Below the pieces are notes generated by a model. That model made no database searches and was not told the origin of the DNA. It saw only the letters and a program-made list of their open reading frames with translations. This document shows, piece by piece, positions 420 to 29,824 of a stretch of 64,000 bases of DNA. The stretch comes from an uncultured Gemmatimonadota bacterium. GTDB lineage: Bacteria > SM23-81 > DAOVCL01. Each line of letters starts with the position of its first letter. Positions within the stretch are counted from its first letter, which is position 1. Made by a program: the position numbers and the translations under genes. The stretch lies in assembly GCA_964626665.1 (NCBI GenBank), contig CAZVGK010000007.1:24505-88504 (forward strand). The letters are read 5' to 3'.

Positions 420-870
420 TTCCAATCCTCGGTCTCCTGACCTCAACATCCATCGGCATCAGGAGATGCCTCCCACAATACGCTCTTCTACCCAGCTTTA
501 GCTGGGGTAACCGCTTTAGGGCTTTAGCCCCTTTTGGAGTGCTATGACAGGGTCACAGCCTACGTCAACAGGAGTTACCACACTTCATAGTAACTCGCAC
601 TAAAGTGCGGTAGAAATTAAAATTCGCCCCCGAGATGGCGGAAGCCCTCTTCTGTCACCCTTCCCTTTTTGCCGTCAGAATCGGGGTTCTGACGGCTCGG
701 GCAGGGGATCTGACCGCTCAGCAGCTTAGATGTAGGGACAGACATTTATGTCTGTCCGCTTCCTTCGGACAGGTCTAAAGACCTGTCCCTACAGTTCATT
801 ATCTATGTAGGAGAGGTCTCCAGACCTTTCAAGAGCTGTCAGGAGGTAACTCCTGACAGCACATTTTTGC
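420..870. repeat. dense array of at least nine distinct short hairpin/palindrome modules (REP/BIME-like mosaic)
   Basis: Hairpins read directly: ggcatcaggagatgcc (455-476); cccagctttagctggg (488-507); gggctttagccc; gtcacagcc...gtcaacagg; cgcactaaagtgcggtagaa (594-615); gccgtcagaatcggggttctgacggc (671-697); nested gtagggacag..ctgtccctac (731-800); aggtctccagacct; gctgtcaggaggtaactcctgacagc (836-866). Each family recurs in other intergenic regions of the window. Confidence 0.85.
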
Positions 871-943: not shown

Positions 944-2932
944 TCAAGGGCATTCTTCCACCCTAAGGGGATTGAACTCCCCTATGTAATCGGCCATCTG
1001 CTCGGTCCCCAGGACCTCCCTCAGGGCATCATCCTGGAAATTGGAGGGGAGATAACGGAAGAAGGAACCAAGGTTAAGCTGCTCCAGCAATGGGCCCCTA
1101 AACCTTTCTAAAACCCTGTCCATCTCCTCGCCCGGAAGCCAAAGGAGCTCCTCCAGGTTAGGGTTCCCCTCTAAGGTGATGAGTATGCCCCCAGAATCCT
1201 CTGCTTTTATCCCCTTAACCAGGCTGATATACTTGGCCCAAATCCCTCCCCACATAGGCCCTAAGAAATGATAGACCTTGGTAATCCCCCCCGCATAACA
1301 GAAGGGAAGGTCATCCTCCTTGGCCCCCACAAAAAACTTCCTCTTCAGTTTTGCCCCCAAGGAGTGGCCCCAAATCCGGCCTCCCCCCCCACAGAACACC
1401 CCCTTTGCCCCCACCCCTTGGTAATCCAAGGGGCGGACATAAACCTTGGAGCCATCCTTTCTCTCCACCTCCCAACTCCTTCCCTTGAGGACGAACTGGG
1501 GGCTTAAAGTCTCTATCGAGCCAATCTCCCTCCCGGACTTCAGGTCAAAGACCTGATAGCTCCCCTGGCTGCGGTCTATATTGGAATGGATAAACCCCCT
1601 CTCCGCTATAGCCTCGGCTCTGGGACCCAGCCAGTACACCCCCCCACCTGGCGACTGCACGAATTCGACCTTCTCCAAATGAATGAGAAGTTCCATAACA
1701 TCGGTAAGCTCTAAACCCAAGGGGGAGAGAGCCCTTTGGATGGCTTCTGGGGTGGCCCCTATCCTTCTCTTCTGATAAAGATAAGAGAGTATCTGCTGCA
1801 CCGCCACCGAGAGATAGAGGGGAGGATCCTCCTCCTCCAGCCACCCTAATTGGGCAAGTTCAAAGAGAAGCTTAAAGAAGGTTAACTCCCAATTATCCTT
1901 ATAGAGACCGTAAGCTACCAATTCTCCCCTTCTCCTGTTGCCTCGTCCCAACCTCTGTAGCAAAGCACTCAGCGAAGGGGGCGGGGAGATGAGAACCACC
2001 GCCTCAATGTCACCTATGTCCACCCCCAACTCCAGGGTCATCGTGGCCACACAGATCCCCACCCTCTCCCGATTCATCCCCCTCTCCACCCTTTCCCTCT
2101 CCACCCTGCTCAGGCTGGCATGATGCACCCATATCCTCTCCGGGTATTTCCAGAGCCTCTTTAGGAGCAAGGCTACCTCCTCCACCTTCTTCCTGGTGTT
2201 GCAGAAGACCAGGGCCTTCTTGATCCCCTTCCCCTCAAGCTCCCTGATCAACCCCTGCAGGTTATCGTCAAAGGGAAGCAGGGTATGTTTAATCACCCTC
2301 TTCCCCTTGGCCTGAACCACCTCAAAGGGGAAGAAATACCTCTCCCCTAAGGATATGGGATCAGCTATCGTTGCCGAAATAGCATAAAAGCGGAGGGGTT
2401 CCCCCCGCAGAAGCCGCAGCCTCTGCAGGAGCACCCGCAACTGATCGCCCCGATAGGTTCCATCTAAGAGGTGGATCTCATCCAGGCAGACGGCCTGCAG
2501 AGACTCCAATGCCTGGGGCGCCCGACAGAGGAGGGAGTCGAAGGACTCCGGGGTGGTAACGAGAGCAGGGGTGGGTTTCTGGGGGCGAAAATCTGGGTGA
2601 TCCATCGTCTTCCTAGACAGGCCAATCCTCAACCGCTCCAAAGGGCCTTTTAACCTCTTGTAGAGGTCGTTAACCAAAGCCCTGGTGGGGGAGACATAGA
2701 GGATGCTCAGCCCCCCCCAATCCTCCTTGAGGAGAAGCTCGGCCAAGGGGGCCATCACGGCCTCCGTCTTCCCGGTGGCCGCAGGCGAGGAGACGACCAG
2801 GTTTCTCCCTTGTAACACCCGGGGTATGGTCAGCCTCTGAATGGGGAGAAGATGGGGGAATGGGGAGAAGAAAGCCCCCCAAGAATGGCTCAGAAGCTCC
2901 CTGACCTCCCGCTCAGACCCCTTGAGGTTCAT
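944..2932 (-). CDS. superfamily-2 DEAD/DEAH-box helicase, Lhr-core-like (BrxHI-like?), last gene of the four-gene operon
   Basis: Walker A AATGKTEA, DEAH-type box CLDEIH, helicase C domain (VFCNTRKKVEE..), followed by a winged-helix-like and ~250-aa C-terminal region. It overlaps the upstream gene by 20 nt. Confidence 0.8.
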   Translation of the reverse strand: MNLKGSEREVRELLSHSWGAFFSPFPHLLPIQRLTIPRVLQGRNLVVSSPAATGKTEAVMAPLAELLLKEDWGGLSILYVSPTRALVNDLYKRLKGPLERLRIGLSRKTMDHPDFRPQKPTPALVTTPESFDSLLCRAPQALESLQAVCLDEIHLLDGTYRGDQLRVLLQRLRLLRGEPLRFYAISATIADPISLGERYFFPFEVVQAKGKRVIKHTLLPFDDNLQGLIRELEGKGIKKALVFCNTRKKVEEVALLLKRLWKYPERIWVHHASLSRVERERVERGMNRERVGICVATMTLELGVDIGDIEAVVLISPPPSLSALLQRLGRGNRRRGELVAYGLYKDNWELTFFKLLFELAQLGWLEEEDPPLYLSVAVQQILSYLYQKRRIGATPEAIQRALSPLGLELTDVMELLIHLEKVEFVQSPGGGVYWLGPRAEAIAERGFIHSNIDRSQGSYQVFDLKSGREIGSIETLSPQFVLKGRSWEVERKDGSKVYVRPLDYQGVGAKGVFCGGGGRIWGHSLGAKLKRKFFVGAKEDDLPFCYAGGITKVYHFLGPMWGGIWAKYISLVKGIKAEDSGGILITLEGNPNLEELLWLPGEEMDRVLERFRGPLLEQLNLGSFFRYLPSNFQDDALREVLGTEQMADYIGEFNPLRVEECP

Positions 2933-4262
2933 AGCGGTAATGGCGGTAATGATCCAGCAATTCCACCGCCTCCCTGAGGAACATCCTCACCCCCCTCTCC
3001 TTCAAATCCTTGGTCAACAGGGCTCTCACCCCTTGGTCCGCCCGAAATGAGGGGAAGGCCTGGCCGTAAAGTTCAATGACCTTCTCTAACATCAGGGAGT
3101 ACTCGGAGGTGGAGAGGGGGGAAAGGGTAATGGTTTTCCCCTGAGGGACAAGCTCCTCTATCCCCTGGTAGTAAGGGGAAGAGGAGGGGGTATAGCCGAG
3201 GACCAAAAATATATGGGAGGGACGCTGATAAAGGTAGGGGAAGGGACGCATACCGGAGTGAATGTACCCCTCCTCATCAACCCAACCTACATTTAGGCCT
3301 GGGTCCCTCTCCCCATCCCCCTTCTTTATCGCGGTCAACCGAGGAAGGTTGAGGGCGGTGCCCACCAGGCCCTTAAAGAGATAAAGGCCAATCCTCTGAT
3401 AGGGGGTCCACCAGAGGTGAAAGAGGGTCTCAGCCTCATCGATGACCAGCACCAACCCCTTTCCTCCTAATCCCTTAATCAGGTATCCTAAGCCGCTAAG
3501 CAGGTAACAGTAGATGTCCACTGCCGGGGTGTGATCTAAGAGGACCGGCAATTTCCAATATCTAAGGTAGTTTAAGTAATCCCTCCCCATCTCTTCCCCC
3601 CCGATCCAATTCCAGAGGGCAGGAAGGTCCTCATCCTGGGAGAGGAGCCAGAGGGCCTTGGAGAGGAAGAAATGGGGGGAGGGAAGGTCCATCCCCTTGG
3701 CTCTCCTCAATATTTCCGGGAAGCCTATCTCCTCATTCCCCTGGATAAACCTCAGGGTCCTGGTCAATTCCCGGTAGATGTGCTTGGGGCGATATGGGGT
3801 GACATCAAACCTATCGAGTTGCGCCCGGCCCACAGCGTATCCCTGCCGCAGGGCCCAGCCAAGGATATAGTCCAAGAGGTGGGTCTTCCCTGACCCATAC
3901 TCTCCCTCTATGGCCAGAACCTCACCGCCCTTGTGGGAGAAACCCTCAAAGGCCTGCTCCACCTCCCGCAGCTCCTTATCTCGGCCAAAGGTGAAGTCAC
4001 TGATGGCCAAGGAGGGAACCACTCCTAATCTGAAGGCCTCGATCATCCTTCGTGATCGGAAATCCCCCCCCTTGGTGGGGATATGCCGGGGCTGAGCAGG
4101 TGGTTTCTTCCTCTCGACCGGGGTAAGCAGCTTTAAGGTCTCCCGGTTCATCCAAAGGGTGAGGCCATTGGCAAACTCCACCAAGAGATGCATCCCTCGC
4201 CATCTGGTATCCACAACCTTCCCCTCACCTAAGCCTTGATGATAGACCTTACTCCCAATCAT
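2913..4262 (-). CDS. P-loop NTPase paralog 2 (GEYGSGKTHLLD Walker A; VLVIDEAE Walker B), BrxD/DUF2791-like
   Basis: 449-aa ORF with Walker A/B motifs and an N-terminal KOW-like region. It is a paralog of the preceding gene. Its start abuts the stop of the upstream gene (4262/4263). Confidence 0.75.
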   Translation of the reverse strand: MIGSKVYHQGLGEGKVVDTRWRGMHLLVEFANGLTLWMNRETLKLLTPVERKKPPAQPRHIPTKGGDFRSRRMIEAFRLGVVPSLAISDFTFGRDKELREVEQAFEGFSHKGGEVLAIEGEYGSGKTHLLDYILGWALRQGYAVGRAQLDRFDVTPYRPKHIYRELTRTLRFIQGNEEIGFPEILRRAKGMDLPSPHFFLSKALWLLSQDEDLPALWNWIGGEEMGRDYLNYLRYWKLPVLLDHTPAVDIYCYLLSGLGYLIKGLGGKGLVLVIDEAETLFHLWWTPYQRIGLYLFKGLVGTALNLPRLTAIKKGDGERDPGLNVGWVDEEGYIHSGMRPFPYLYQRPSHIFLVLGYTPSSSPYYQGIEELVPQGKTITLSPLSTSEYSLMLEKVIELYGQAFPSFRADQGVRALLTKDLKERGVRMFLREAVELLDHYRHYRYEPQGV

Positions 4263-5540
4263 TTAATACTCCTTATGATTCGCCTCTTCCTGAAGCTCCA
4301 TCTCCAAGGTCATCAATTGATCCCGAATAATCCTTCTGGCCATCTCCCTTCCTATGGGCTCAGCGGGATTGTTTCTCAGGAGGTGAAAGGCCTGAATTAT
4401 CCCCTTCACAAAGACCCGCCTATGGCCCACATCAGCATACCTCTCCTCATAGGCCACCTGGGCCAGGTGGGAGATGGTCTCCCTAAGGTTATCCCGGTGG
4501 AAGCTAAAGGGGGGATAGGCAGCCTGGTAGATAGCGGAGAGCTTCTCCCCCACTTCCCTGAGGAACTCCACCGGCTCCATCCCCAACTCCTCCAGGTTTA
4601 TCCTCACCCCACTGGGATTAAGCCCAGTGAGAACCCCGGAAAGCCTCTGACGCAGGGCTTCATAGACCTCCAATCTCTCCTCCAAGAGCTGCCTTTCATC
4701 GGGAATGGCATAGAAGATCATCACCCCGGGGAGCCTGCTGTTTCCACATTCATCTATCAGTTGCCTGAGGTTATCCATAGCTGCCCTCCTCTCCCGGGAG
4801 GAGGCAATGCTTAAACCTCTCTCCGCCTCATCAAAGAGGAGGACCAGGCCTGCATAGCCAATGGCCTTGATCCACTGGGCCAAGGATCTGAGCTGGCGGA
4901 AGGCGGTGGGCTTGTCCACCCTTTCGGTGATCCCATACTCATTGCGGATGGGGCGATCGATCTCTTCCCCCTTCAACCACTGGAGTATCCGTTCATAGTC
5001 CTGACCTCCCCTCTGCAGGGAGAGAAAGGCCTCCTTGACCGCATTGGCAAAGCTGGAGGACTCTATCCCTGCCAGGGAGCGGACATAGGAGGTGAGGTAC
5101 TCCTCCCCTTTCTCCCCAAACTCCTCCACCTTCTCCATATACCAGTTGCGGAGGAAACCATCGATCCCCCTCTCCCAGGGCTTTATCTCTCCCTCCCCCC
5201 TCATCGGATACATCAGGTTGGCCATCGTAGCCTTATAGACAAGCTCCAGCTTGTTGAAGGGGCATTCCACCGGGGAGAGGGCCACATAACTTACCGCATA
5301 ACCTCGCGACCAGCCTATATCCCTCATCCGGTAGAGGAAGTGGGTCTTCCCCCCTCCGTAATTGCCAACTACTAACTTGAAGGCCGAACCTCCTAACTTG
5401 ATAAAACTCTCTAAATACTCCTCATCTATTATCCCCAACCAGGGGTCCAACCCCACGGTAAAGGACTCTACCCCAAACTCTGGGGGGGTCCCGGTCCCCC
5501 CCAACCTGTTTATTATAGCCTTGGCCAACCCTGGTTTCAT
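4263..5540 (-). CDS. P-loop NTPase paralog 1 (GNYGGGKTHFLY Walker A; VLLFDEAE Walker B), BrxD/DUF2791-like
   Basis: 425-aa ORF with the same motif architecture as 2913-4262. It lies 4 nt downstream of the first gene. Confidence 0.75.
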   Translation of the reverse strand: MKPGLAKAIINRLGGTGTPPEFGVESFTVGLDPWLGIIDEEYLESFIKLGGSAFKLVVGNYGGGKTHFLYRMRDIGWSRGYAVSYVALSPVECPFNKLELVYKATMANLMYPMRGEGEIKPWERGIDGFLRNWYMEKVEEFGEKGEEYLTSYVRSLAGIESSSFANAVKEAFLSLQRGGQDYERILQWLKGEEIDRPIRNEYGITERVDKPTAFRQLRSLAQWIKAIGYAGLVLLFDEAERGLSIASSRERRAAMDNLRQLIDECGNSRLPGVMIFYAIPDERQLLEERLEVYEALRQRLSGVLTGLNPSGVRINLEELGMEPVEFLREVGEKLSAIYQAAYPPFSFHRDNLRETISHLAQVAYEERYADVGHRRVFVKGIIQAFHLLRNNPAEPIGREMARRIIRDQLMTLEMELQEEANHKEY

Positions 5541-6378: not shown

Positions 6379-7125
6379 CCTTTACTTGCTGTTGGGGTTG
6401 AAGCCAGAATCATCGAAGTGGGTTGGCAACTCCCCTCGCTATAATTATAACCTTTACCTTCCCGAAATCAAGCAAATTATTTTCTCGAAAATAGCTCCCT
6501 GGCTAAATCACTGCTTCCCTAACTGAACAACCATCTCCGTAGTTGCCGATTATATCAGGTAACTAACTCTTCAGAGCCGAGGGATTACAATTTGCCTCTG
6601 TTACTTGAATGGGGAACTGGCGTGGGGAGTAAAGAAAACAGCTAAAGAATTTCTAAAAATAGCCGATAATAGGATCAAACTGTAGTAGCCCACAACAAAA
6701 ATCAAACATAATCGTTGCTTCTGTCGTTATGGATGATGAAATCCATAAGGAGACAAGATGTGGAGGACATCTCCCCTGGGCGGAGCCTCGGGCAAGCCTG
6801 ATGTCGACTTTACCTCTCCCTTGCAGGGAAAGGTTGGAGCCTACCCTGAGTCTTCGGCCCGAACTCAAGCCGAGAACTTGCCGAAGGATGAGGGTGAAAT
6901 TCCCCTCTAAGAAACCCCCTCCTTCTAACTCCCTCCCACCAGTGGAGGGAGAATTATAATCGAGGTCTGGAGACCTCTCCCACAACTGTGGTCAGAGAAC
7001 AGGGATCAGGGGAATCCATGGCAACCGACACCTGCCTGCCGTGCTCCCTGACCTCCGTAAGCTGTCAACAATTGGATAAAATTTTTTGTGAGCCACTATA
7101 GTTGCTCAAATTATCAATTTTCCCC

Positions 7126-10411: not shown

Positions 10412-10483
10412 CCCGGATTAGTCATAGGTCAGATGTTCTCATCCTCACCGACGGGCTATCAGGTGCCCAGACTTGAAGGCAAA

Positions 10484-10522
10484 CCAGGCGGCAGAACCGG
10501 AGTTCTGCCGCCTGGTTTTTTG
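10484..10522 (+). terminator. rho-independent terminator (ccaggcggcagaaccggagttctgccgcctgg + TTTTTTGT) built from a gcagaa..ttctgc family hairpin
   Basis: 12-bp perfect stem followed by a T-run, downstream of the small membrane protein gene. Confidence 0.6.
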
Positions 10523-10734: not shown

Positions 10735-11700
10735 TTGCCGCGCATAAGAATAGGTGTAATTGGGGTTGGCCACTTAGGCAAGTATCATCTCCAGAGGCTT
10801 TTAGAGCTTCCCCTAGCCCAGGTGGTGGGCCTCTTTGATAAAGACCAGGCAAAGGGGGAAAGGGTAGCCAAAAGTCTGGGGGTGAGGGCCTGGCCCCACC
10901 TAAGTGACCTCCTCAAGGAGGCAGAGGCCGTAGTGGTTGCTGTCCCCACCAGCTCCCATTACGAGGTAGTTATAGAGGCCCTCTCTCAGGGGCTGGCGGT
11001 CCTGGTGGAGAAACCCCTTGCCGGTAGATTGGATGAGGGGGTGGAGATGGTGAAGATGGCCCAAAGCAAGGGGAAGGTCCTTCAGGTAGGACATATAGAG
11101 AGGTTCAACCCCGCCTTTACCTCGCTTAGGGGGTTGAAAATTGAGCCCCGGTTTATAGAGGCCCATAGGCTCTCCCCCTTCCACCCGCGGGGAATGGATG
11201 TGGCTGTGGTCTTGGACCTGATGATCCACGACCTGGACCTTGTCCTTGCCCTGGTCAACTCCCCTCTACAGTCCGTGGAGGCTATGGGGGTGGCTGTGGT
11301 CTCTGATCAGGAGGACATCACCAACGCCCGCCTTAGCTTTGAAAACGGCTGTGTGGCCAATCTCACGGCCAGCAGGATATCGGCCAAATCGATGCGCAAG
11401 CTGCGCATTTTCCAGAGGGATTCCTATCTCTCCCTCGATTTTATCCAGAAGAACACAGAGGTATACAGGCTTCTCCCCTCCTCAGGAGGGGTCAATGGCG
11501 AAAAGATATTTGACCTTGCTGGCCGGTACCTTATCCGCAAACTAATAACCGACAAGGGGGTTGATCCCCTCAAGGAGGAGCTCTCCTCATTCCTCTCGGC
11601 AATAGCAGGCCACCATCCTCCCCCTGTCTCTGGCCAGGAAGGGCTAAAGGCCCTAAGGTTGGCCCTGAGGGTGTTAGAGGCCATAAGATGCAGAACTTAG
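10735..11700 (+). CDS. Gfo/Idh/MocA-family NAD-dependent oxidoreductase (possible GnnA-like UDP-GlcNAc 3-dehydrogenase, by lipid A context)
   Basis: N-terminal Rossmann motif IGVIGVGHLGKYH. It lies immediately upstream of lpxB. Confidence 0.75.
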   Translation: MPRIRIGVIGVGHLGKYHLQRLLELPLAQVVGLFDKDQAKGERVAKSLGVRAWPHLSDLLKEAEAVVVAVPTSSHYEVVIEALSQGLAVLVEKPLAGRLDEGVEMVKMAQSKGKVLQVGHIERFNPAFTSLRGLKIEPRFIEAHRLSPFHPRGMDVAVVLDLMIHDLDLVLALVNSPLQSVEAMGVAVVSDQEDITNARLSFENGCVANLTASRISAKSMRKLRIFQRDSYLSLDFIQKNTEVYRLLPSSGGVNGEKIFDLAGRYLIRKLITDKGVDPLKEELSSFLSAIAGHHPPPVSGQEGLKALRLALRVLEAIRCRT

Positions 11701-11756
11701 CTCGCTTCGCTCGCAAAGTTCTCCATAGGGTCTCACGACCCTTCCCGACCTACAGT

Positions 11757-11815
11757 CGGGACTCGGATTGCCCATCTGTCACCCTTGAAGGGGGCTTACC
11801 CCCTTCAAACAACCC
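11757..11815. repeat. repeat containing hairpin gaagggggtaagcccccttc, shared with 57566-57620 and 19826-19858
   Basis: gtttgaagggggta(a/t)gcccccttcaagggtgacag..gcaatccgag occurs in both places. The spurious N-terminal extension of the lpxB ORF covers it. Confidence 0.6.
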
Positions 11816-11858
11816 CCAACCTATCGGAATTTCCAAGAAATCCCGATGGGTCAAGTTA

Positions 11859-12971
11859 ATGGTCCTGGCCGGTGAGGCTTCCGGGGACCTGCATGCCGCT
11901 GGCCTCATCCATCAACTAAAGAAGCTCCTCCCCTCAGTTACCTTCTTCGGAATGGGAGGGGCAAAGATGGAGGAGGAAGGGGTTGAACTTATCTACCACC
12001 TGCGAGATCTCTCCCTCATTGGGTTTACGGAACCATTGAGGAAGCTCCCCTTCTTTCGGCGGGCAATGGGGAAGATGACCAAGCTCCTCAAGGAGAGGGA
12101 GCCCGATCTGGTAATCCTGGTGGACTACCCTGGTTTCAACCTGAGATTTGCCCGCCAGGTAAAAAAGAGAGGGATTCCCCTTGTCTATTACATCTGCCCT
12201 CAGGTCTGGGCCTGGGGGAGATGGCGGATAAAGAAGATTGCTAAGCTGGTGGATAGGGCCATAGTCTTTTTCCCCTTTGAGCGTAATCTCTATCAACGGG
12301 CAAAGCTGAGGGCCGATTTTGTCGGCCATCCTCTGATAGAGATTATCAGGGAGGAGCAGAAGGGAGAGGTTTTTCGGCGGCAGATGGGGATAGAAAAGGG
12401 AGAAGAGGTTCTGGGCCTCTTTCCAGGAAGCAGGGAAGGTGAGGTAAGAAGAATCCTTCCCCTGATGCTGCAGGCTTACAGGTTGTTGGCAAAGAAGGTT
12501 AAGATGAGGGCCTTCTTGGCTCTCTCTCCAAATATCCCCCTTGATCTGGTCAAGGGTTATGAGGTGGAGATCCTCCAGGGGAGAAATTATGAGCTTATGG
12601 CTGGCTCATCTCTGGTCTTAGTGGCCTCAGGAACGGCAACCATAGAGGCCACCATCTTAGGGACGCCAATGCTAATCATCTACCGCATTTCCCCCCTCTC
12701 CTGGCTCTTAGGGAGGTTGCTGGTGAGGCTTCCCTATATAGGGATGGTCAACATATTGGCCGGGAAACAATTGGTCCCTGAGCTCATCCAGAGGAGGGCA
12801 AACCCCCCGCAGATAGCCGCTGCGGCCTGGAGATTGCTGAATGATGAGGGGAGAAGGGAGGAGATGAAGAGGGGATTAGAAAAGGTGAAAAGAGGGCTGG
12901 GAGAGCCAGGTGCCTACCTCAGAGCTGCCCAAATAGTGCACGAGGTCTTCAGGGGTGGCCGGCAAGCTTAG
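11859..12971 (+). CDS. lpxB: lipid-A-disaccharide synthase
   Basis: MVLAGEASGDLHAAGLIHQLKK is a typical LpxB N-terminus. The internal ATG at 11859 is chosen as the start. Confidence 0.85.
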   Translation: MVLAGEASGDLHAAGLIHQLKKLLPSVTFFGMGGAKMEEEGVELIYHLRDLSLIGFTEPLRKLPFFRRAMGKMTKLLKEREPDLVILVDYPGFNLRFARQVKKRGIPLVYYICPQVWAWGRWRIKKIAKLVDRAIVFFPFERNLYQRAKLRADFVGHPLIEIIREEQKGEVFRRQMGIEKGEEVLGLFPGSREGEVRRILPLMLQAYRLLAKKVKMRAFLALSPNIPLDLVKGYEVEILQGRNYELMAGSSLVLVASGTATIEATILGTPMLIIYRISPLSWLLGRLLVRLPYIGMVNILAGKQLVPELIQRRANPPQIAAAAWRLLNDEGRREEMKRGLEKVKRGLGEPGAYLRAAQIVHEVFRGGRQA

Positions 12972-16918: not shown

Positions 16919-16919
16919 G

Positions 16920-17490
16920 CAACCAGGAGACAGTTCACGGGGCGGCAAAGCCGCAAAGTTTAAAGAAAAAGACTCACCACGGATTTACACGGAATAACAC
17001 GGGAAGAGAATAGAGACTGCCGTCAGAATCGGGATTCTGACGGCTCAGGAATTTCCATTTTCTATTTTCTTGGATATAGGTTTGTTTCTGTGTCTTTCCG
17101 TGAGATTCCGTGGTGAGTTGTTATGATCTTCTTATCTATTCGAGTAGATTCGTTTATTCGTGTCATTCGTGTTCCTTCTTTAAGGAGTTGTGGGAGGCAT
17201 CTCCTGATGCCAATAAAAATGGTGCTGTCAGGAGTTATCTCCTGACAGCTCTTAAAAGGTCAGGAGACCTCTTCCACAAAAGAGGGATCTAACAGACCCC
17301 AATGCCGGATAGAGAGATTCCTACCGCACTTTAGTGCGGGCCTTAAGTCAATTACTAAATCCGAATGACGAAAAAGGCTTAAACCCAATAAACCTATGAG
17401 TAACGAGCTATGATTGCATTTTCCCCAGCAGCGGAATCCGTGTAATCCGTGGCTATTGTTTATCCGTGAGGTTCCGTGGTAAACTCTGCG
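16920..17490. repeat. intergenic hairpin/repeat mosaic (ccgtcagaatcgggattctgacgg 17019-17044; ggaggcatctcctgatgcc 17194-17213; gtgctgtcaggagttatctcctgacagc 17222-17249; 20-mer 17321-17340; 65-bp repeat 17398-17462 shared with 21990-22056)
   Basis: Modules match those at 420-870, 34836-34878, 57106-57134 and elsewhere. Confidence 0.85.
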
Positions 17491-17494
17491 TTCT

Positions 17495-18381: not shown

Positions 18382-19797
18382 GTGAAAAGAATCATATTTT
18401 TTCTGATGGTCTCCATTCTGGCCCTGGGCTTAACCCTTCCTGCCCTGGGGGTTGATCTCACCGGTAAGATAGGGGTAGGGGGATTGGTTTCCCCGGTAAA
18501 GCCCGTGTTGAGCGATCACTCGGATATCTGGGCCGTTGGAGGACAAGGGAAACTACTGGTCAAGTATGGGATCAACAAGAACTTTGCTGTTGGATTAAGT
18601 GCTGGATTTGCCAGGGTCTGGAACGACACTACCACTGGCAGTGATGGGGTTGGCTTCACCTTCCCCAGCCCAAGTGATAAGGCTTCCTTAGTCTGGGATC
18701 TCATTCCTGTAGGGGTAAATGGCTATTACAGCATCATCCCTGACAACCCCAAATTAAACCCTTATGTAACCTTGGGATTAGAGGCCAACATCTGGAAGGT
18801 AACCGATTATAGCACAGGCAATGATGTCCCTATCCTTGACAAGGATGATAATCTCAGGCCGGACTTCAAGGCCACAGAGGTTACCGTTGGGGTCGGTGGT
18901 GGCTTGGAATATTTCGTCAAGGAGAACATAGGGATAAACGGTGGGGTCAAGTTTAACTTCCTCACCGGTTTAGGGGCTGACCTCAGCACTAACACAGATC
19001 TGGTAGACAGAAGCAGGGGCATTGTAGAGGGATTTGCTGGAGTAACCTACTACATCGAGATAAAAAAAGACTCGGATGGAGATGGCATAAAAGACGACCT
19101 TGATGCTTGCCCACTGCAACCTGAGGATTTCGATGGCTTTGAGGACGATGATGGCTGCCCTGACCCCGATAATGACAACGATGGCATCCCGGATATCTCC
19201 GACAAATGTCCCAACGAGCCTGAGGATTTAGACGGTTACCAGGATGATGACGGCTGCCCAGACCCAGATAATGACAATGACGGGGTCTTGGATGTGGAGG
19301 ATAACTGCCCCAATGAGGCAGGACCCGCCTCCAACCATGGCTGCCCCATTGTCGATTCCGACAAGGATGGGGTATTGGATCCAGATGACCGCTGCCCCAA
19401 CACCCCTATGAGGGTGAAAGTAGACAGGTATGGATGCCCCACCGCGGCCAAGATAGTGGGGAAGTTGGTCTTGGAGGGTGTGAATTTTGCCTCTGGGAAA
19501 ACAAAATTTACTCCTAGTTCAGAGGCCAAATTGGATGAACTGTACAAATCCCTGAAGGCCTATCCTGACTTAAGGGTAGAGATCCAGGGATATACGGATA
19601 GTTGGGGCAGAGCCAAGGCCAACAAGGCCCTTTCTGAGAAGAGGGCAAAGGCAGTGATGAACTACTTGATTAACAAGGGGATAGCCTCCTACAGGCTAAA
19701 AGCTGTAGGTTATGGGGAGGTCAATCCCATTGCCAGCAACAAGACCAAAGCTGGCCGTGCCAAAAATAGAAGGATCGAGATCCTTCCCCTGAAGTAG
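18382..19797 (+). CDS. OmpA-family outer-membrane protein with thrombospondin type-3 (TSP3) Ca-binding repeats
   Basis: GTG start with a GGAGG RBS. Signal peptide, N-terminal barrel, DxDxDGxxDxxD repeats, and a C-terminal OmpA domain. Confidence 0.85.
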   Translation: MKRIIFFLMVSILALGLTLPALGVDLTGKIGVGGLVSPVKPVLSDHSDIWAVGGQGKLLVKYGINKNFAVGLSAGFARVWNDTTTGSDGVGFTFPSPSDKASLVWDLIPVGVNGYYSIIPDNPKLNPYVTLGLEANIWKVTDYSTGNDVPILDKDDNLRPDFKATEVTVGVGGGLEYFVKENIGINGGVKFNFLTGLGADLSTNTDLVDRSRGIVEGFAGVTYYIEIKKDSDGDGIKDDLDACPLQPEDFDGFEDDDGCPDPDNDNDGIPDISDKCPNEPEDLDGYQDDDGCPDPDNDNDGVLDVEDNCPNEAGPASNHGCPIVDSDKDGVLDPDDRCPNTPMRVKVDRYGCPTAAKIVGKLVLEGVNFASGKTKFTPSSEAKLDELYKSLKAYPDLRVEIQGYTDSWGRAKANKALSEKRAKAVMNYLINKGIASYRLKAVGYGEVNPIASNKTKAGRAKNRRIEILPLK

Positions 19798-19799
19798 TA

Positions 19800-20030
19800 A
19801 CTCTTTGGGTAGAAGGGGGTGTCGTCTTCTTTAGCGATGCCCCCTTCTGTTATTGGTTAGACTCCGATTTTCATTTCGGGAATTGACTGAGCGGTCAAAT
19901 GTCCTCATCTGACCGTCCCTCCGTCAAGCCGTCAGGTGCCTTCACCTGAAGGCGATAGAGAAAGGTGGTAGAATTGGGGTTCTGCCACCTCGCTTTTGGT
20001 TTACTTTGAGTTTAAATAACAAAGAAAGAG
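19800..20030. repeat. composite hairpin element (gaaggggg..cccccttc 19826-19858; tgagcggtcaaatgtcctcatctgaccg 19888-19914; caggtgccttcacctg; ggtggtagaattggggttctgccacc 19965-19989)
   Basis: The same three-hairpin composite recurs at 36368-36434 and 60606-60706. Confidence 0.8.
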
Positions 20031-20037
20031 AGGGGGA

Positions 20038-21829: not shown

Positions 21830-22095
21830 TAGATGACAGAAGAGGGCTTCTGCCACTCCCTGGGGAGCCTTCAACCACCCGTCCCGAACCGGAGCGGGTC
21901 GGGGAAGCTGGGTAGATGGGTTCTACCACACTTTAGTGTGGGTCTTCTATCCATGTCCGCTGAAGGGGCTTAAGCCCCGGGAACCCAACGAGTAACGAGC
22001 TACGATTGTAGTTTTTCCCATCAGTGAAATCCGTGTGATCTGTGGCTGTGCTTGGTTGCGGCCTTGTTGCACTGAGAATCCCTGGAAGAAAGGAC
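21830..22095. repeat. intergenic repeat cluster (20-mer variant ctaccacactttagtgtggg 21923-21942; 65-bp repeat 21990-22056; aatccgtgtgatctgtggctgtg..gttgcggccttgttgc 22035-22082, shared with 17437-17470 and 26597-26645)
   Basis: Direct sequence matches to the other regions listed. Confidence 0.8.
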
Positions 22096-22100
22096 ATCCT

Positions 22101-24144: not shown

Positions 24145-26148
24145 ATGATAAAGAAGATAATCCTATTTTCCCTGCTTTTTTTCTCCTTAACCTGTGGTAA
24201 GGCCTGGTCATTCCTGGGATTTCAGGCCAGAAGCTTAGGGATGGCCGGGGCTTACTCGGCCATAGCCAGAGGGGAGGAGTCGGTCTACTTTAACCCTGCC
24301 AACCTGGGTCTCTCAGATGGCCCCAGCTTCTCCCTTTCCTTTCCCTCCTTTGGCCTTGGCCTGGGAAACAACAGCTTTACCCTCTCCGATTACAACCGCT
24401 ACAACGGCAGCTACCTCTCGGATGGGAACAAGAGGACCATCTTACGCAAGATACCCTCAGCGGGCCTCTCTCTGGATAGCGGAACCGAAATCGGGCTTCT
24501 TGGCCTCTCCTACAAAAACTATGCATTCTTCATTCAAGGCTCAGGGGCAACCTATATCACCCTACCTCGTGACCCCTTTGAACTTATCCTCTACGGGAAC
24601 GAACTGAACAGGTCATACGAGATCGGCGATGTCGATGGGGAGGCCTTGGCCCAAGCAACCGCAGGTTTCTCTGCGGCTAAACGAATTAACCTTAAGGGGT
24701 TTAACGAATTCAGCGTAGGGGCGAGTCTGAAGTATCTCAGGGGACTATACTATGCAGAGGTGACCAGGTCAGGGGGGAGCATATTGACCACGGAGAGCTC
24801 GATTGAGGGGGAGGGGGAGATAGTCTATCGTCACGCTCAGGGCGGACAGGGGTTTGGTCTGGATTTTGGCGCTGCCGGCTCCTTCGGCAGGGGCTGGACA
24901 GTAGGACTAACCCTCTTCAACCCCTGGGGGTCCATCAAATGGAGCAGAGAAACCGAGGAGGGTTTTTTCACCTTTAAGGCTGAATCCTTAACCGTCAGCT
25001 CAACCAATAAGGATACCCTGGTGACTTCAGATGATTCCAGCTATGAGATCGGTTCCTTCAGATTACATCTCCCCTCTTACCTGAAAATGGGGGTTTCTCG
25101 CCGTTTTCGCAAGTTCCTCCTTGGCTTTGACTACGAGCAGGGGTTTAGAAACACAGCGGGAGTAAGCACCACACCAAGGCTGGCGGCTGGGGTCGAATAT
25201 AACCTCTTGAAGTGGCTGCCCCTAAGGGGAGGTCTGGCCATAGGGGGGAGGGAGGGATTCAACAGCGCGCTTGGTCTGGGCCTCCATTTAGGAAGCTTCC
25301 AGTTGGATGTCTCCACATCCAGCAGAGGACTGGTCTTTACCCCCTGGAGTAAAGGGATTGGCTTAGCTGCCTCCTTTGGCCTCAGATTTGGCAAAACTCC
25401 CCAGGCCATCACTGATCAGGACAAGGATGGCATCCCAGATAACCTTGACCTCTGTCCACTCCAGCCTGAAGATCTCGATGATTTTGAGGATACCGACGGA
25501 TGTCCAGACCCAGATAACGATAAAGATGGCATCCCTGACATCTCCGACAAATGCCCCAACGAGCCTGAGGACATCGATGGCTACCAGGATACCAACGGTT
25601 GCCCCGACCCGGATAACGACCGGGATGGGGTCTTAGATGTGCAGGACAATTGTTCCAATGAAGCAGGCCCAGCCTCCCATCAGGGCTGCCCTATACCTGC
25701 GGATTCTGATAGTGACGGAGTGCTGGACCCTGATGACCACTGCCCCCACACCCCAATGGGGGTGAAGGTAGACAGGTATGGATGCCCCACTGCAGGCAAG
25801 ATCGTGGGGAAGATGGTGCTGGAAGGAGTGAATTTTGCCTCTGGGAAGGCTAAATTTGCCCCTGGCTCAGAGACCAAGTTGGATGAACTATATGAGTCTC
25901 TGAGAGCCTATCCTGAGATAAGGATAGAGATCCAGGGATATACGGACAGTCGGGGGAGAGCCGAGGCCAACAAGACCCTTTCCCAGAAGAGGGCAGAGGC
26001 AGTGATGAACTATCTGATTAACAAAGGGATAGCCTCTTACAGGCTCAAGGCTGTAGGTTATGGGGAGGCCAACCCCATTGCCAGCAACAAGACCAAAGCT
26101 GGCCGTGCCACAAACAGGAGAGTAGAGATCCAGGTATTCCAACAATAG
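24145..26148 (+). CDS. OmpA-family outer-membrane protein with TSP3 repeats (paralog of 18382-19797, with a larger N-terminal barrel)
   Basis: Signal peptide. The C-terminal ~240 aa (TSP3 + OmpA module) are nearly identical to the gene at 18382. Confidence 0.85.
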   Translation: MIKKIILFSLLFFSLTCGKAWSFLGFQARSLGMAGAYSAIARGEESVYFNPANLGLSDGPSFSLSFPSFGLGLGNNSFTLSDYNRYNGSYLSDGNKRTILRKIPSAGLSLDSGTEIGLLGLSYKNYAFFIQGSGATYITLPRDPFELILYGNELNRSYEIGDVDGEALAQATAGFSAAKRINLKGFNEFSVGASLKYLRGLYYAEVTRSGGSILTTESSIEGEGEIVYRHAQGGQGFGLDFGAAGSFGRGWTVGLTLFNPWGSIKWSRETEEGFFTFKAESLTVSSTNKDTLVTSDDSSYEIGSFRLHLPSYLKMGVSRRFRKFLLGFDYEQGFRNTAGVSTTPRLAAGVEYNLLKWLPLRGGLAIGGREGFNSALGLGLHLGSFQLDVSTSSRGLVFTPWSKGIGLAASFGLRFGKTPQAITDQDKDGIPDNLDLCPLQPEDLDDFEDTDGCPDPDNDKDGIPDISDKCPNEPEDIDGYQDTNGCPDPDNDRDGVLDVQDNCSNEAGPASHQGCPIPADSDSDGVLDPDDHCPHTPMGVKVDRYGCPTAGKIVGKMVLEGVNFASGKAKFAPGSETKLDELYESLRAYPEIRIEIQGYTDSRGRAEANKTLSQKRAEAVMNYLINKGIASYRLKAVGYGEANPIASNKTKAGRATNRRVEIQVFQQ

Positions 26149-26149
26149 A

Positions 26150-27160
26150 AGATCTAGCGCAGCTTCGCCTCAAACCGACGAGGCGGGAAGCCTGCCCCGT
26201 GGGTAGTTTCACACCCTACGGGGCAAGTAAGGAAATCCTAAATCCGAATATCGAAATCCGAGACAAATCCCAATTCACCCCGTTAGATAGACAATTCTTT
26301 ATCTAACGGGGTGAACCAAATTCCAAATTCTCTAAACTAAGAACCCTTTGCCAAAAGCAGGTTTGCCTCAGGCTGCTTTCCACATTTGAATTTCGATGTT
26401 GCTCGCCCCGTTAAGTAGCTGGTTTTTCATTAGAACTCCTTGTGGTGAAAATTAGCAAAACCAGGGGAATCACTTACTGACGCATAAATAGATACTTAAC
26501 GGGGTAAAAATTTCGTGCTTCGAATTTAAAGGCAGCAGGGTTTATTGTTCAGCCCAAAACCTGACACAAATTTTAAGATCTTGCCTTATGAAGCCAGCTA
26601 GACATAGCGCAACAAGGCCGCAACCAAACAACAGCCACGGATTACACGGATAGAACATTCACCCTGCACTTATATTAAGTGCAGGGCAGGTGACACGAAT
26701 GGATGAATCTACACTAATAGATAGTTGTATAAATGCACCCCCTACATTTCTACCCGGCTTTAGCCCATTTGGAATGCTGTGACCGTGTCACAGCATGCGT
26801 CAACAGGGTTGACGCACTCTATATAAGGGCCTAAAGGCCCTGAACCCGCACTAAAGTGCGGTAGAAGTCTTCTACTCATCACAACCTGATAAACCTTGTC
26901 AAAAAAACAAGATCTTGCAAGATTGCAGTACAGCGGAGTAAGCAATCGGCTACGCGACTTATCAGGTGGTCATTCAGGACTTAAATTAGGTAGACCCTCC
27001 CCTTGGTATAATTAGGACGCAGATTTTCGCCGATAACCGCAGAAAATTAAAATCTTGACAATCTGCGTTCACCCCGTTAGATAAGATGTTAAAACTCATT
27101 AAATTTGATAAAAGACCTAATCTAATTATCTAACGGGGTTTATCTGCGTCCAAAAAAGGA
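26150..27160. repeat. 1-kb non-coding repeat mosaic: 14-bp-stem hairpin caccccgttagata..tatctaacggggtg 26275-26315; ggtggcagaa-family partial; caagatcttg element 26903-26930; hairpins 26775-26825; 20-mer 26845-26867; caccccgttagataa/ttatctaacgggg inverted repeat 27072-27150
   Basis: Read directly, with matches to other intergenic regions. Confidence 0.8.
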
Positions 27161-27165
27161 ATTTC

Positions 27166-27450
27166 CTATGCTTTCCAGTTACGCGCCCCATGCACGACTC
27201 CAGTAATCCAGACTTCATTGCCTTCAAGCCGATACATAATACGATAGGGTCTGTAAATGATTTCTCGGCAGGATTGATTGCCAATTTCAGGTATTACACG
27301 TCCAGAGAAGGGAAATTCCTGCAAACGATCCGTAACTTCCAATAACCGAGCTACAAAAAGAGTCGCTTGGTCAACAGAATCTCTCGCGATATATTCCGCG
27401 ATAGAATTGACATCATCTAATGCAGATGGTGCCCAAATTACTTTGCCCAT
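27166..27450 (-). CDS. parE: type II toxin, ParE/RelE family
   Basis: 94 aa with a typical ParE C-terminus (..EVWITGVVHGARNW). It overlaps the upstream antitoxin by 13 nt. Confidence 0.75.
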   Translation of the reverse strand: MGKVIWAPSALDDVNSIAEYIARDSVDQATLFVARLLEVTDRLQEFPFSGRVIPEIGNQSCREIIYRPYRIMYRLEGNEVWITGVVHGARNWKA

Positions 27451-27620
27451 TTTTGCAGCTTCTGCTTTGCCTCTTCGTGTGAAATGCCCTTCCCCTCTTG
27501 AACTTCACGTTCACCATGTTCAAACTTGATCTTGATGTACAGCGCATGGATAATGTCATCCATGGTTGCCTCATCTGGCAGAGTATCAATTACCTGTTTG
27601 GCTATGTCTTTAATGGCCAT
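27438..27620 (-). CDS. type II antitoxin (small helical, partner of ParE)
   Basis: 60-aa ORF upstream of, and overlapping, the toxin. Confidence 0.6.
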   Translation of the reverse strand: MAIKDIAKQVIDTLPDEATMDDIIHALYIKIKFEHGEREVQEGKGISHEEAKQKLQKWAK

Positions 27621-27957: not shown

Positions 27958-28222
27958 TTAGGCCAATTCCCGTAGTAATCTGTCATATTCAGGATGAGTA
28001 CCAATCCAAAACCAGATTAAACCCTCATCTATTTCCACTGCCAGAGTTCGGTGCTTTCTGCCTACTCTGGCCGACCAGTACTTACCAGCTTTCTTGAGAT
28101 GTAAAGTAAGGATGTTTAGGGTTAGTTTTAAGAAGCTTGAAATTCTTATCTGCCAAGTCCTGAACAGATGATGGTAGTTGTTCATAGCAGGTCCAAAATG
28201 ACGGATTAGCAAAGTGTTTCAT
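27958..28222 (-). pseudogene. RelE/HigB-superfamily toxin interrupted by a +1 frameshift in a T-run
   Basis: ATG at 28222 overlaps the antitoxin TGA (ATGA). Frame 1 gives MKHFANPSFWTCYEQLPSSVQDLADKNFKLLKTNPKHPY.. then a stop. The C-terminal toxin core (LHLKKAGKYWSARVGRKHRTLAVEIDEGLIWFWIGTHPEYDRL) is in the +1 frame. Removing one T from cttt near 28100 restores a continuous ~87-aa toxin. Confidence 0.55.
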
Positions 28223-28419
28223 AACTCTTTGCACTTACCAGCCCGAAAGTCCGTTATGGCTTTATTGGCCAATTTCTCAAGCTTTCCTGATTGGACATCT
28301 TCCTCAAACTGGTTATCCCATATTTTTGCCTCAAACTCCTCAAACCATTCCCTCAAAGCCGCTAAGTCATCTTTTGGTAGCTGAGTAATTGCTTTTTCAA
28401 TTTCCTGTACTGTATTCAT
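28219..28419 (-). CDS. antitoxin, putative addiction-module component (TIGR02574-like)
   Basis: GGAGGTGA RBS 7 nt before ATG at 28419. MNTVQEIEKAITQLPKDDLAALREW.. motif. The longer ORF to 28545 is probably a spurious extension. Confidence 0.6.
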   Translation of the reverse strand: MNTVQEIEKAITQLPKDDLAALREWFEEFEAKIWDNQFEEDVQSGKLEKLANKAITDFRAGKCKEL

Positions 28420-28580
28420 CTGTATATCACCTCCTATGGGGCCTAACTTAACTTTTAAGCCGTATAAATCGCCAAAAAATACTTGATATAGCGTATATCT
28501 GTAAAAATTGTAGCCTAATCCCAAATTTTCTTTTATCTCTTCCAAGAAATTCTTATGTTATTACTAAATCATCGAGAATG

Positions 28581-29816: not shown

Positions 29817-29824
29817 GGAATCTC

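Follow-up and report, generated by a model that had tools for sequence, protein, structure and literature searches.

The intergenic regions of a 64,000-nucleotide stretch of contig CAZVGK010000007.1, which derives from an uncultured sediment bacterium and is referred to at its full length as the window, contain arrays of short hairpins, an early one of which occupies positions 420-870. The closest described systems are the GTAG repetitive extragenic palindromic sequences (REPs) and the REP doublets forming hairpins (REPINs), which together with RAYTs (tyrosine transposases that are REP-associated; TnpA-REP) have been called 'REPtrons' (Nunvar 2010; Bertels and Rainey 2011, PMC3116915; Ton-Hoang 2012; Di Nocera 2013, PMC3733652). 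In the latter survey, GTAG REPs are recorded from more than 80 species of 8 phyla and the 'head-head' dimer predominates in most GTAG families (PMC3733652). The same survey describes TIRYTs or 'TIRtrons', in which RAYT-like genes are flanked by inverted repeats other than GTAG REPs, and CGTC-tagged REPs, which include dRS3 of Neisseria and RPE-4 and RPE-6 of Rickettsia and are characterized by an unpaired terminal CGTC, an 8-9-bp stem starting with A-T, a 4-5-nt loop and a CCA tail (Di Nocera 2013, PMC3733652). Because GTAG REPs are known from so many species and the diversity of RAYTs has also been surveyed (PMC5581495, PMC6006769), the system described below is, taken as a whole, of an already-known kind. 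What is unusual is the density of the repeats and the number of families residing together, as well as a variant, here called class 2, that is associated with a small divergent clade of transposases.

We consider it probable (about 0.75) that the arrays are clusters of small non-autonomous mobile repeats of the REP/REPIN type, at least two families of which have a cognate RAYT of the HUH/Y1 kind. The palindromes that a first-pass annotation of the window had described as resembling enterobacterial bacterial interspersed mosaic elements (BIMEs), without being able to place them, can now be placed in part: class 1 is assigned to the GTAG REPs with a RAYT and class 2 flanks a RAYT-like clade. The likeness to the BIMEs of E. 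coli holds for kind and architecture, since in both cases oppositely oriented REP-type palindromes and other short conserved motifs are clustered in intergenic DNA. It does not extend to sequence, as a blastn search of 5,426 E. coli genomes gave no match to array 420-870, which lacks the make-up of the enterobacterial Y/Z-type REPs and the named linker motifs. The arrays of the window further differ from BIMEs in containing many more unrelated hairpin families per array and in filling divergent promoter gaps as well. BIMEs have been reported to bind IHF, gyrase and Pol I. In Nostoc and Anabaena, the small dispersed repeats (SDRs) are very short hairpin units of several families that form mosaics and are nested within each other in intergenic DNA. 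The arrays resemble them in these respects, whereas the sequences are unrelated and two of the families studied here have a link to a transposase; we know of no such link for the cyanobacterial SDRs.

Work on REP/REPIN-RAYT systems has been confined almost entirely to Proteobacteria, in whose genomes they are regarded as long-lived residents passed on vertically. If our assignment is correct, a system of this kind has colonized an uncultured lineage of the Fibrobacteres-Chlorobi-Bacteroidetes (FCB) group, in which hairpin repeats of several co-resident families make up much of the non-coding DNA. No paper linking Zixibacteria, the presumed relatives of the host, with REPs was found in the literature. 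A literature search for exact hairpin strings gave no match for three class-2 strings and only unrelated primers for GTAGGGACAG of class 1, and neither similarity searches against plasmids and phages nor two pattern scans of IMG/VR gave a match.

Density and recurrence of the hairpins

According to the gene mask, 13,078 of the 64,000 bases (20%) are non-coding. This DNA contains 43 perfect hairpins (stems of 7 bp or more, loops of 3-9 nt), whereas 20 first-order Markov randomizations gave 5.05 on average and never more than 9. The roughly 8.5-fold excess is a property of non-coding DNA only: in coding DNA 39 hairpins were found and 28.2 were expected, such that the densities are 3.29 per kb of non-coding and 0.77 per kb of coding DNA. 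Core motifs, counted with up to three mismatches and compared with 100 dinucleotide-preserving shuffles, are strongly over-represented, with 9 copies of TCTACCGCACTTTAGTGCGG (0.00 expected), 7 copies of CCGTCAGAA-N6-TTCTGACGG (0.01 expected) and 5 copies of GCTGTCAGGAG-N4-CTCCTGACAGC (0.00 expected) in the window. Exact 15-mers that are also found elsewhere cover 21.5% of the non-coding but 3.6% of the coding DNA, and in the arrays at 291-943 (55%), 16919-17494 (56%) and 57072-57710 their share exceeds 50%. The length of 15 was chosen because the sharing of 12-mers, which was tried as a measure of repetition and discarded, covered coding and non-coding DNA equally and was dominated by chance matches. 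Most of the repeated 15-mers within coding DNA stem from the paralogy of two OmpA-family genes (18382-19797 and 24145-26148), whose 3' portions of about 570 nt are 77-83% identical (repeat families D1 and D2). All of the composite elements that were folded did better than shuffled sequence, with z-scores of -3.6 to -9.6.

Inspection of the sequence placed hairpins at 420-870 and in the other intergenic regions that had been listed for them. The three-hairpin units reported to recur at 19888-19989, 36368-36434 and 60606-60706 are real (families D5 and D16) and were also found in a related metagenome-assembled genome (MAG; L007). The count of ten or more families has to be revised: the hairpins exist, but most are sub-hairpins of about 6-8 composite elements, and the strings of two families (C and D), given with a 7-nt loop, have a loop of 6 nt or, with a longer stem, of 4 nt. 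It had been conceded that the motifs might be confined to the window or might be assembly artefacts. Neither is the case. A class-2 19-mer was detected at 26 loci in other genomes, including 11 in the Zixibacteria MAG and 9 in an unclassified MAG, and the same repeat elements are present outside the window on its own contig. The window forms part of the Joint Genome Institute (JGI) metagenome contig 3300031365|Ga0307443_1000042 (103.8 kb), assembled in several samples. Assemblies of this population made independently match the window at 100% identity and break off within repeats, at positions 840 and 29804.

Class 1: GTAG REP doublets and their RAYT

The class-1 unit consists of GTAG-GGAC(A), a variable distal stem, a TTTA, TAAA or TGAA loop and GTCC, and usually occurs as an inverted doublet GTAG...CTAC. 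In 18 sampled sequences there are 51 such units (GTAG-GGACAGACA-TTTA-TGTCTGTCC and variants), about 6-8 of them in the window. Ten adjacent pairs have the tags outside, with spacers of mostly 9-12 nt, one has the tags inside and none is in tandem. The copies are extragenic and multiple in every sampled stretch. In the first array, a complete doublet at 729-795 reads GTAG-GGACAGACA-TTTA-TGTCTGTCC, followed by a 9-nt spacer and GGACAGGTC-TAAA-GACCTGTCC-CTAC (z -5.4).

The transposase was found in a relative. Since the 2.6-kb segment 702-3290 of the window is orthologous, with 80% nucleotide identity, to L016, a contig of a MAG labelled Candidatus Zixiibacteriota, the host is predicted to be a relative of the Zixibacteria. 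In L016, the locus orthologous to the first array of the window contains a gene, for a protein of 171 residues, with GTAGGGACAG class-1 doublets on both sides, and the doublet of the window (731-793) is 94% identical to these RAYT-flanking doublets. The protein contains the HUH motif PDHLHLL and the tyrosine motif YIFHNPVRKKLV, scores 57.6 bits with Pfam Y1_Tnp and 118.4 bits with the NCBIfam model NF047646, 'REP-associated tyrosine transposase' (cut-off 80), and has as its best sequence match in the PDB 4er8, the TnpA-REP of E. coli. Homologues with 84%, 86% and 65% identity are located on other contigs between the same GTAGGGAC flanks (L031/L032, L033/L034 and L092). In L033 (2201-2686) and L034, which come from two samples of the same project, the gene has suffered an 8-nt deletion near the 5' end relative to L016; the called gene therefore has only 117 codons and may be a decaying copy.

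Judged by these traits, class 1 is a canonical GTAG REP/REPIN with a predicted cognate RAYT and displays every sequence-level hallmark of such a system: a 5' GTAG tag, a stem of 7-10 bp and a short loop; head-head doublets with the tags outside and a spacer of 9-12 nt; multiple extragenic copies; and, in the relatives, doublets on either side of a single small Y1 gene that passes the NCBI RAYT model. It differs from the systems described previously in its host, which is an uncultured organism of the Zixibacteria type rather than a proteobacterium, in the distal half of the stem, which is free to vary (GGGC/GCCC, ACA/TGT, CTCCG/CGGAG) above a fixed GTAGGGAC foot, and in its occurrence in mixed arrays with at least five other families. 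A further difference is that the window has no RAYT and that the orthologous site is decayed, as discussed below.

Class 2: a composite element and a divergent RAYT-like clade

The class-2 element (E2) is larger. Its left part consists of TTCTACC-GCAC-TTTA-GTGC-GGGTT followed by GGGCC-TTnAG-GGCCC and, optionally, the hairpins GGAGTGCTGTGACAGGAGTCACAGCACTCC and GCGTCAAC..GTTGACGC; its right part consists of GGGC-TAAA-GCCC and then TTACCCC-rGC-TAAA-GCy-GGGTAGAA. In general form, the outer hairpins are TTCTAC-stem-TTTA-stem-GGGTT and AACCC-stem-TAAA-stem-GGTAGAA, with up to four inner hairpins between them. The 14 distinct full copies measure 71-132 nt, and those in the window are located at 486-616, 26748-26866, 29964-30044, 35715-35785 and 40665-40757. 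The element takes in the hairpins cccagcTTTAgctggg and gggctTTAgccc, which had been regarded as families in their own right. The 130-nt copy of the first array (486-616, minus strand; z -3.6), which has the order TTCTACC-hairpin(TTTA), internal hairpins and hairpin(TAAA)-GGTAGAA, is 85% identical to L016:3253-3386.

The association of class 2 with a divergent RAYT-like clade is supported by several lines of evidence. In L013, a single-cell genome of the Patescibacteria, an open reading frame (ORF) of 208 codons has the class-2 19-mer as its 3' flank and a TTCTACC-hairpin as its 5' flank. The proteins associated with class 2 have about 190 residues and the conserved motifs NHYHLKF (HUH) and GYIIGNLLKH (Tyr); 24 of the 26 members match Y1_Tnp, and some have been named RayT by JGI. 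The AlphaFold model of one such protein (pLDDT 88.5) has as its best structural match 4er8, a RAYT bound to a REP hairpin (E 1.2e-8, TM 0.60/0.71), followed by TnpA structures of the IS200/IS605 family of insertion sequences (ISs). Among 42 loci of class-2 genes in metagenomes, exact TTCTACC or TCCTACC occurs within about 130 nt upstream in 19 and GGTAGAA or GGTAGGA within about 110 nt downstream in 20, while further loci have variant tags, for example TTCCAC and GTGGAA. Several of the proteins end in ...AKAG*, which represents the hairpin translated through the TAG of the tag. In L057/L093 (50% GC, same sampling project), E2, class-3 and E5 repeats, the latter two of which are described below, occur in the intergenic regions, and a gene with intact motifs (P0241) lies between two full composites that are about 90% identical to copies in the window. 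The clade is small, with 28 cluster representatives at E<=1e-30 among 1.84 billion proteins, and is centred on the Patescibacteria; it is also present in Zixibacteria-like contigs of the same sampling project.

With TIRYTs, and with the subterminal-hairpin ends of the related IS200/IS605 elements, class 2 has in common that a Y1/HUH gene is bracketed by inverted hairpin ends and that gene-less copies of the ends are moderately abundant and form dimers and clusters. It differs from them in having the GTAG-containing tag 3' of the hairpin on the folding strand, in a non-autonomous copy of 70-130 nt with four to six hairpins and in its small, Patescibacteria-centred protein clade. The ends also lack GGGGWSAS, which the survey gives as a motif common to some TIRs (terminal inverted repeats; Di Nocera 2013, PMC3733652).

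The conserved hairpins of class 2, its covarying stems and fixed TTTA/TAAA loops, and the fact that the unit folds significantly better than shuffled sequence would also be expected if the composites, above all the 130-nt unit, were multi-copy genes for a structured non-coding RNA. We regard this as very improbable. A check against Rfam, as had been advised, returned no known family: the scan of the window yielded no match at the gathering score and, at E<0.5, only eukaryotic matches at chance level. Moreover, the copies occur in both orientations, are truncated and nested, and their ends are inverted copies of one tag plus hairpin that bracket a transposase gene in the way IS ends do.

The class-2 hairpin is identical in genomes labelled as four different phyla, for which horizontal spread, constraint by the enzyme and mis-binning are all possible reasons. 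We put forward only tentatively, and at less than even odds, that class 2 is a previously undescribed REPIN-RAYT lineage with a mirror-image tag, a larger unit, ends shared across phyla and a place in shared arrays. Such a lineage would be set apart by a tag 3' of the hairpin on the folding strand, where the second base pair is a conserved G.T wobble; by a non-autonomous unit that is a cassette of 70-130 nt with four to six hairpins instead of a simple doublet; by a transposase and hairpin ends that are nearly identical in nucleotide sequence across genomes labelled Patescibacteria, Zixibacteria, Bacteroidales and Betaproteobacteria; and, in Zixibacteria, by intergenic 'hairpin ecosystems' shared with at least four orphan families. 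If this were true, the class-2 RAYT unit would still be moving horizontally like an IS, unlike the vertically inherited, domesticated RAYTs of Proteobacteria. In any event, the class-2 hairpin (TTCTAC-hairpin / hairpin-GTAGAA) and the divergent RAYT clade constitute a concrete putative enzyme-substrate pair of unusual geometry that crosses phylum boundaries.

Two further occurrences of class 2 were noticed. L080 is a locus of 33% GC with a class-2 RAYT; at 1330-1420 it contains an inverted repeat CCCCGTTAGATA...TATCTAACGGGG of the family E6 (see below) inside the loop of a class-2 hairpin, which means that the same two families are nested in a very different genome. In a Bacteroidales MAG (L005 2300-3300, L019 2700-3700 and L030 5750-6750), the class-2 hairpin CTACCGCACTTTAGTGCGG closes a run of tandem units of about 230 nt (AAGCATAAAAACC..ACTCAGAGGAATCGTGTGGG..), for which there was no Rfam match at these three loci.

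Strand asymmetry and proposed mechanism

The sequence TYCYAC is directly followed by a perfect hairpin at 126 of 944 sites, as compared with 0-2 hairpins at the 221-420 sites of each of six permuted control tags. Among these hairpins there are 40 distinct stems; 74 hairpins have the loop TTTA and 25 have CTTG. Stems with a single mismatch reveal an asymmetry between the strands. On the GTAG strand of class 1, 11 mismatches are G.T and 1 is A.C; on the TYCYAC strand of class 2, 41 are A.C (18 distinct sequences) and 8 are G.T. The A.C mismatches of class 2, most of which concern the second base pair, are G.T wobbles on the complementary hairpin-GTAGAA strand. Because of this preponderance of G.T over A.C, the GTAG-bearing strand is predicted to be the one that folds in both classes. 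Recognition of single-stranded hairpins by HUH/Y1 enzymes is established for IS608, ISDra2 and TnpA-REP. By analogy, an asymmetry of this type would be expected for recognition by such an enzyme, and it would fit a function as RNA too.

The working part of the elements would be a single-stranded DNA hairpin with its short tag. In the proposed mechanism, the RAYT would bind the foot of the hairpin and the tag on the GTAG-bearing strand when this is single-stranded, for example at a replication fork, cleave beside the tag by means of its catalytic tyrosine and rejoin the strand elsewhere, such that gene-less doublets and composites spread. The patchwork of the arrays would arise when new copies insert beside or into older ones and partial deletions and recombination among the copies follow. 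Nested insertion fits the finding of a hairpin of class 3a (see below) inside E5 and of the E6 copy inside the class-2 loop in L080, and the orthologous arrays of L016 and the window's contig differ by whole elements.

Could the hairpins instead be signals selected by the host, that is, terminators, stabilizers of mRNA 3' ends or protein-binding sites, whose similarity is the result of convergence and not of mobility? Many arrays are located downstream of genes, the hairpin at 10481-10518 is a textbook terminator, several copies of the E4 hairpin are followed by ACATTTTT on one strand, the G.U-compatible asymmetry just described fits RNA as well, and secondary roles of this kind are reported for REPs elsewhere (PMC3733652). 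We nevertheless judge such an origin improbable. By a strict rule, which asks for 6 or more T within the 9 nt after the hairpin, a T-run is absent on both strands from all 43 perfect hairpins, and even a looser consensus scan retained only one strong site (10481-10518) and a few E4 copies, by which intrinsic termination is rejected for most of the hairpins; the earlier remark that most of them lack T-runs was correct. Arrays are found in divergent gaps and elements in both orientations. Composites of 60-130 nt are 85-94% identical across unlinked loci and genomes that are only 80% identical in coding DNA, elements flank transposase genes, and orthologous sites differ by whole elements. A role of the arrays as terminators or mRNA stabilizers would be secondary, if there is any.

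Class 3 and the elements E4, E5 and E6

Class 3, the family of GAG-tagged CAGAA hairpin doublets, comprises three related hairpins, each preceded by (y)GAG: 3a is CCGTCAGAA-yCCCGA-TTCTGACGG, 3b is GTGGCAGAA-..-TTCTGCCAC and 3c is CGGTCAGAT-..-ATCTGACCG. They are frequently arranged as inverted doublets or as the three-hairpin unit mentioned above. With CGTC REPs they have in common a CGTC or TGTC near the foot of the hairpin, the inverted doublets and the lack of an associated transposase. In contrast to CGTC REPs, the CGTC is paired within the stem, A-T pairs are missing from the start of the stem, whose foot is G/C-rich, the flanks consist of GAG...(A)AAG or CTC, and a CCA tail is lacking, so class 3 was not assigned to them. 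When peptides encoded by class-3 hairpins were searched among RAYT homologues, the one lead (P0006, which ends in LSGQISGQT) proved to be flanked by class-1 REPs and was dismissed as a class-3 RAYT.

E4 is an element of about 95 nt with three hairpins, TTGTGGGAG-GCATCTCCTGATGCC ... GTGCTGTCAGGAG-TTAC-CTCCTGACAGC ... GGTCAGGAGACC-TCTTCCACAA (17188-17278), in which three of the families of the first-pass annotation are merged. E5 (16972-17118) has long inverted repeats with three CACGGA iterons per arm and a 3a hairpin nested within it. E6, the CCCCGTTAGATA inverted-repeat family, is CACCCCGTTAGATA ... TATCTAACGGGGTG with a variable interior. Toxin-antitoxin cassettes nearby and the GTTAGAT core of E6 led us to consider integron attC sites. 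In attC the core has the opposite orientation: the GTTRRRY...RYYYAAC of E6 is inside-out relative to it. As no integrase is present either, this candidate was rejected.

For these orphan families in particular, and in principle for all, an origin as ordinary miniature inverted-repeat transposable elements (MITEs) has to be considered, which would derive from DDE-type ISs, be recognized as double-stranded TIRs and generate target-site duplications instead of being substrates of a RAYT. E6 has TIRs of 14 nt around interiors of 10-90 nt, and direct repeats of 7-8 nt (ATCTGCGT or TGCAGAT) flank 2 of the 6 copies; E4 (TTGTGGGAG.../...CTCCCACAA) and E5 have long TIRs, each folding as one long hairpin; and an ISL3 transposase adjoins the RAYT gene in L035, which demonstrates the presence of DDE elements in these genomes. 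The direct repeats of E6 may, however, be two iterons of the host element, as CGCAGAT recurs at a spacing of about 10 nt in other copies, and about 300 kb of related sequence yielded no DDE transposase whose ends match. Y1 transposase genes lie between copies of classes 1 and 2, and neither the strand-asymmetric wobble pairs of these two classes nor the covarying stems of class 2 under a fixed tag and loop would be expected for recognition of double-stranded DNA. On these grounds we think it unlikely that some or all of the families are MITEs, while for E4-E6 a DDE-type origin is a live alternative. In our preferred interpretation, the orphan families (class 3 and E4-E6) would, by analogy, be the same sort of object as the REP-type elements.

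Several observations weigh against assigning the arrays to mobile REP-type repeats. For the GAG-tagged CAGAA doublets of class 3 and for E4, E5 and E6 no transposase has been identified, and the TIRs and possible 7-8-bp flanking repeats of E6 (2 of 6 copies) fit a DDE-type MITE better. The arrays also fill divergent, promoter-side gaps (29817-30253 and 40502-41793), whereas REPs in the genomes studied so far are located mostly between convergent or co-directional genes (PMC3733652). Class 2 does not have the canonical REP geometry, since on the strand that forms the wobble pairs its tag, (G)TAGAA, is 3' of the hairpin, the mirror image of a REP, and the class-2 proteins of L057 and L013 score 38.7 and 35.6 bits with NF047646, below the cut-off of 80. 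The tetranucleotide correlation of L057/L093 with the window is only 0.78; these sequences may come from a related rather than the same organism. Neither tblastn nor a scan for HUH/Tyr motifs found a RAYT in the window and the adjoining 9 kb, for which reason the link between RAYT and repeats rests on the relatives. The sole orthologous RAYT site in the window's contig, at L036 14440-14575, about 1.5 kb past window position 1 and between hicA and the next gene, is decayed: it contains half-hairpins and one intact REP only, at the position where L016 carries its RAYT gene together with three REP doublets and one class-2 element. Loss of a RAYT copy by deletion is the more likely explanation of this difference, because fragments of the doublets found upstream of the RAYT in L016 and L033 persist in the window's contig.

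Distribution of the elements along the window

Array 1 (291-943) is situated between the 3' end of a helicase gene and the next gene and contains the region 420-870. It begins with an E4 end fragment on the plus strand (425-478; GGTCTCCTGACC hairpin, GGCATCAGGAGATGCC and TCCCACAA), which is an inverted match, with 96% identity, to 17188-17214 (I20). The class-2 composite described above is followed on the minus strand by a class-3 doublet (636-722), which consists of a truncated 3b, a complete 3a (GAG-CCGTCAGAA-CCCCGA-TTCTGACGG, 671-698) and a 3c fragment (GAGCGGTCAGAT) and is 94% identical to L028:2233-2298. After the class-1 doublet, the array contains a part of E4 on the minus strand (806-868), with a AGGTCTCCAGACCT hairpin and a GCTGTCAGGAG-GTAA-CTCCTGACAGC hairpin, that is 89% complementary to 17216-17278 (I3). 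A small array at 6929-6990 combines a CCCTCCC-loop-GGGAGGG hairpin with an E4 end (AGGTCTGGAGACCTCTCCCACAA; D13). The terminator-like hairpin at 10481-10518 (plus strand) has a 17-bp stem and is followed by a T-run; its core, GGCGGCAGAAC..GTTCTGCCGCC, resembles class 3b (D3).

A repeat copy of 165 nt with a TTGAAGGGGGC-TTA-CCCCCTTCAA hairpin (11701-11865, plus strand; I1) is located between two genes of an operon and aligns with the reverse complement of 57510-57700 and with L010. It has been absorbed into the longest ORF of lpxB, which begins inside the repeat (11688-11865 region). Since the Pfam LpxB match begins only at residue 58 and the typical N-terminus MVLAGEASGD starts at about 11859, the true start of lpxB is probably about 170 nt downstream of the one chosen by the ORF caller. 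The suspicion that ORFs called over the arrays are artefacts was well founded: peptides with FLPHFSAG arise from the class-2 hairpin, and the N-terminus of lpxB was read through the repeat copy. Repeats of this kind break short-read assemblies and create spurious ORFs and wrong start codons, and they should be masked when such MAGs are annotated.

Array 5 (16919-17494; I19) contains the E5 long inverted repeat with its CACGGA iterons (z -9.6) and the nested 3a hairpin (17019-17046), the complete E4 (z -6.3), a class-2 hairpin (17319-17339) and an E5-like end (17419-17494). In array 6 (19798-20037; D5 and D16, also in L007; z -6.5), the class-3 unit at 19884-19992 has the order TGAG-3c hairpin, CCGTCAGGTG hairpin and 3b hairpin-CTC. 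In array 7 (21830-22099), the class-2 hairpin at 21921-21941 has a covarying stem, CCACAC/GTGTGG, and is accompanied by a GGGGCTTAAGCCCC hairpin and an E5-like end. Array 8 fills a convergent gap (26149-27165) and holds E6 inverted repeats at 26276-26313, 26404-26506 and 27070-27140, the class-2 composite at 26748-26866 on the minus strand and other repeats. Array 9 (29817-30253; I23), in a divergent gap, is made up of an E5 end (29802-29829) and a class-2 composite.

An E4 element at 34827-34880 is part of array 10 (34735-35005). Array 11 (35399-36526) comprises an E4 hairpin (35531-35556), a doublet of 3c and a 3a-like hairpin (35588-35640), GCTGGTAGGGC-TCT-GCCCTACCAG (35685-35707), a class-2 composite and a class-3 unit (36364-36437). 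In the divergent gap of array 12 (40502-41793), the class-2 composite is followed by a class-1-like doublet (40759-40815), a 3b-like hairpin (40840-40870) and a cluster of hairpins (41564-41727). Array 13 (50795-51236; I4 and I11) has a TGTGGATG-TTAT-CATCCACA hairpin (50966-50985) and a repeat (51008-51051) that is common to 26557-26600 and 36285-36340. In array 14 (57072-57710; D7, I1 and I8), an E4 hairpin (57103-57148) and the left part of a class-2 element (57183-57265) are accompanied by a 3a hairpin whose tail measures 70 nt (57281-57383), a class-1 REP (57424-57447) and, at 57510-57700, the partner of the 11701-11865 repeat. A class-3b hairpin, TGAGGTGGCAGAAG-AGAG-CTTCTGCCACCTCA, with a stem of 14 bp, stands isolated at 59246-59293 (D5) and precedes array 15, which occupies a convergent gap (59885-61715). 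There, a class-3 unit (60602-60709) is accompanied by a class-1 REP (60780-60803), 3a hairpins at 60829-60862, 61019-61121 (with tail) and 61492-61523, a class-2 hairpin (60877-60897), a CCCTCCC hairpin (61243-61261), an E4-like hairpin (61269-61298) and a class-1-like doublet (61306-61365).

Genomic setting

The genes of the window are of the Gram-negative type and include lpxB, a Kdo transferase, OmpA-family proteins, SecA and a BrxC/D-helicase cluster; a tRNA scan of the window found no tRNA gene. A hairpin CCCCGCAGC-loop-GCTGCGGGG is present in two copies 110 nt apart (28581-28600 and 28691-28711) and nowhere else in the window. The first array is adjoined by a defence-like cluster (944-5540) of two BrxC/BrxD-type ATPases and a DEAD/Cas3-like helicase, which is kept in the related Zixibacteria MAG (L016). 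Small genes of the toxin-antitoxin type are located in or beside the largest repeat-rich regions (27166-27620, 28219-28545, 57711-58420 and 59407-59884 of the window; L036 14008-14460). The set comprises a ParE toxin with its partner, Unstab_antitox with a ParE-like partner, and DUF5678 with a retropepsin-like aspartyl protease, and a HicAB pair is situated just beyond the edge of the window.

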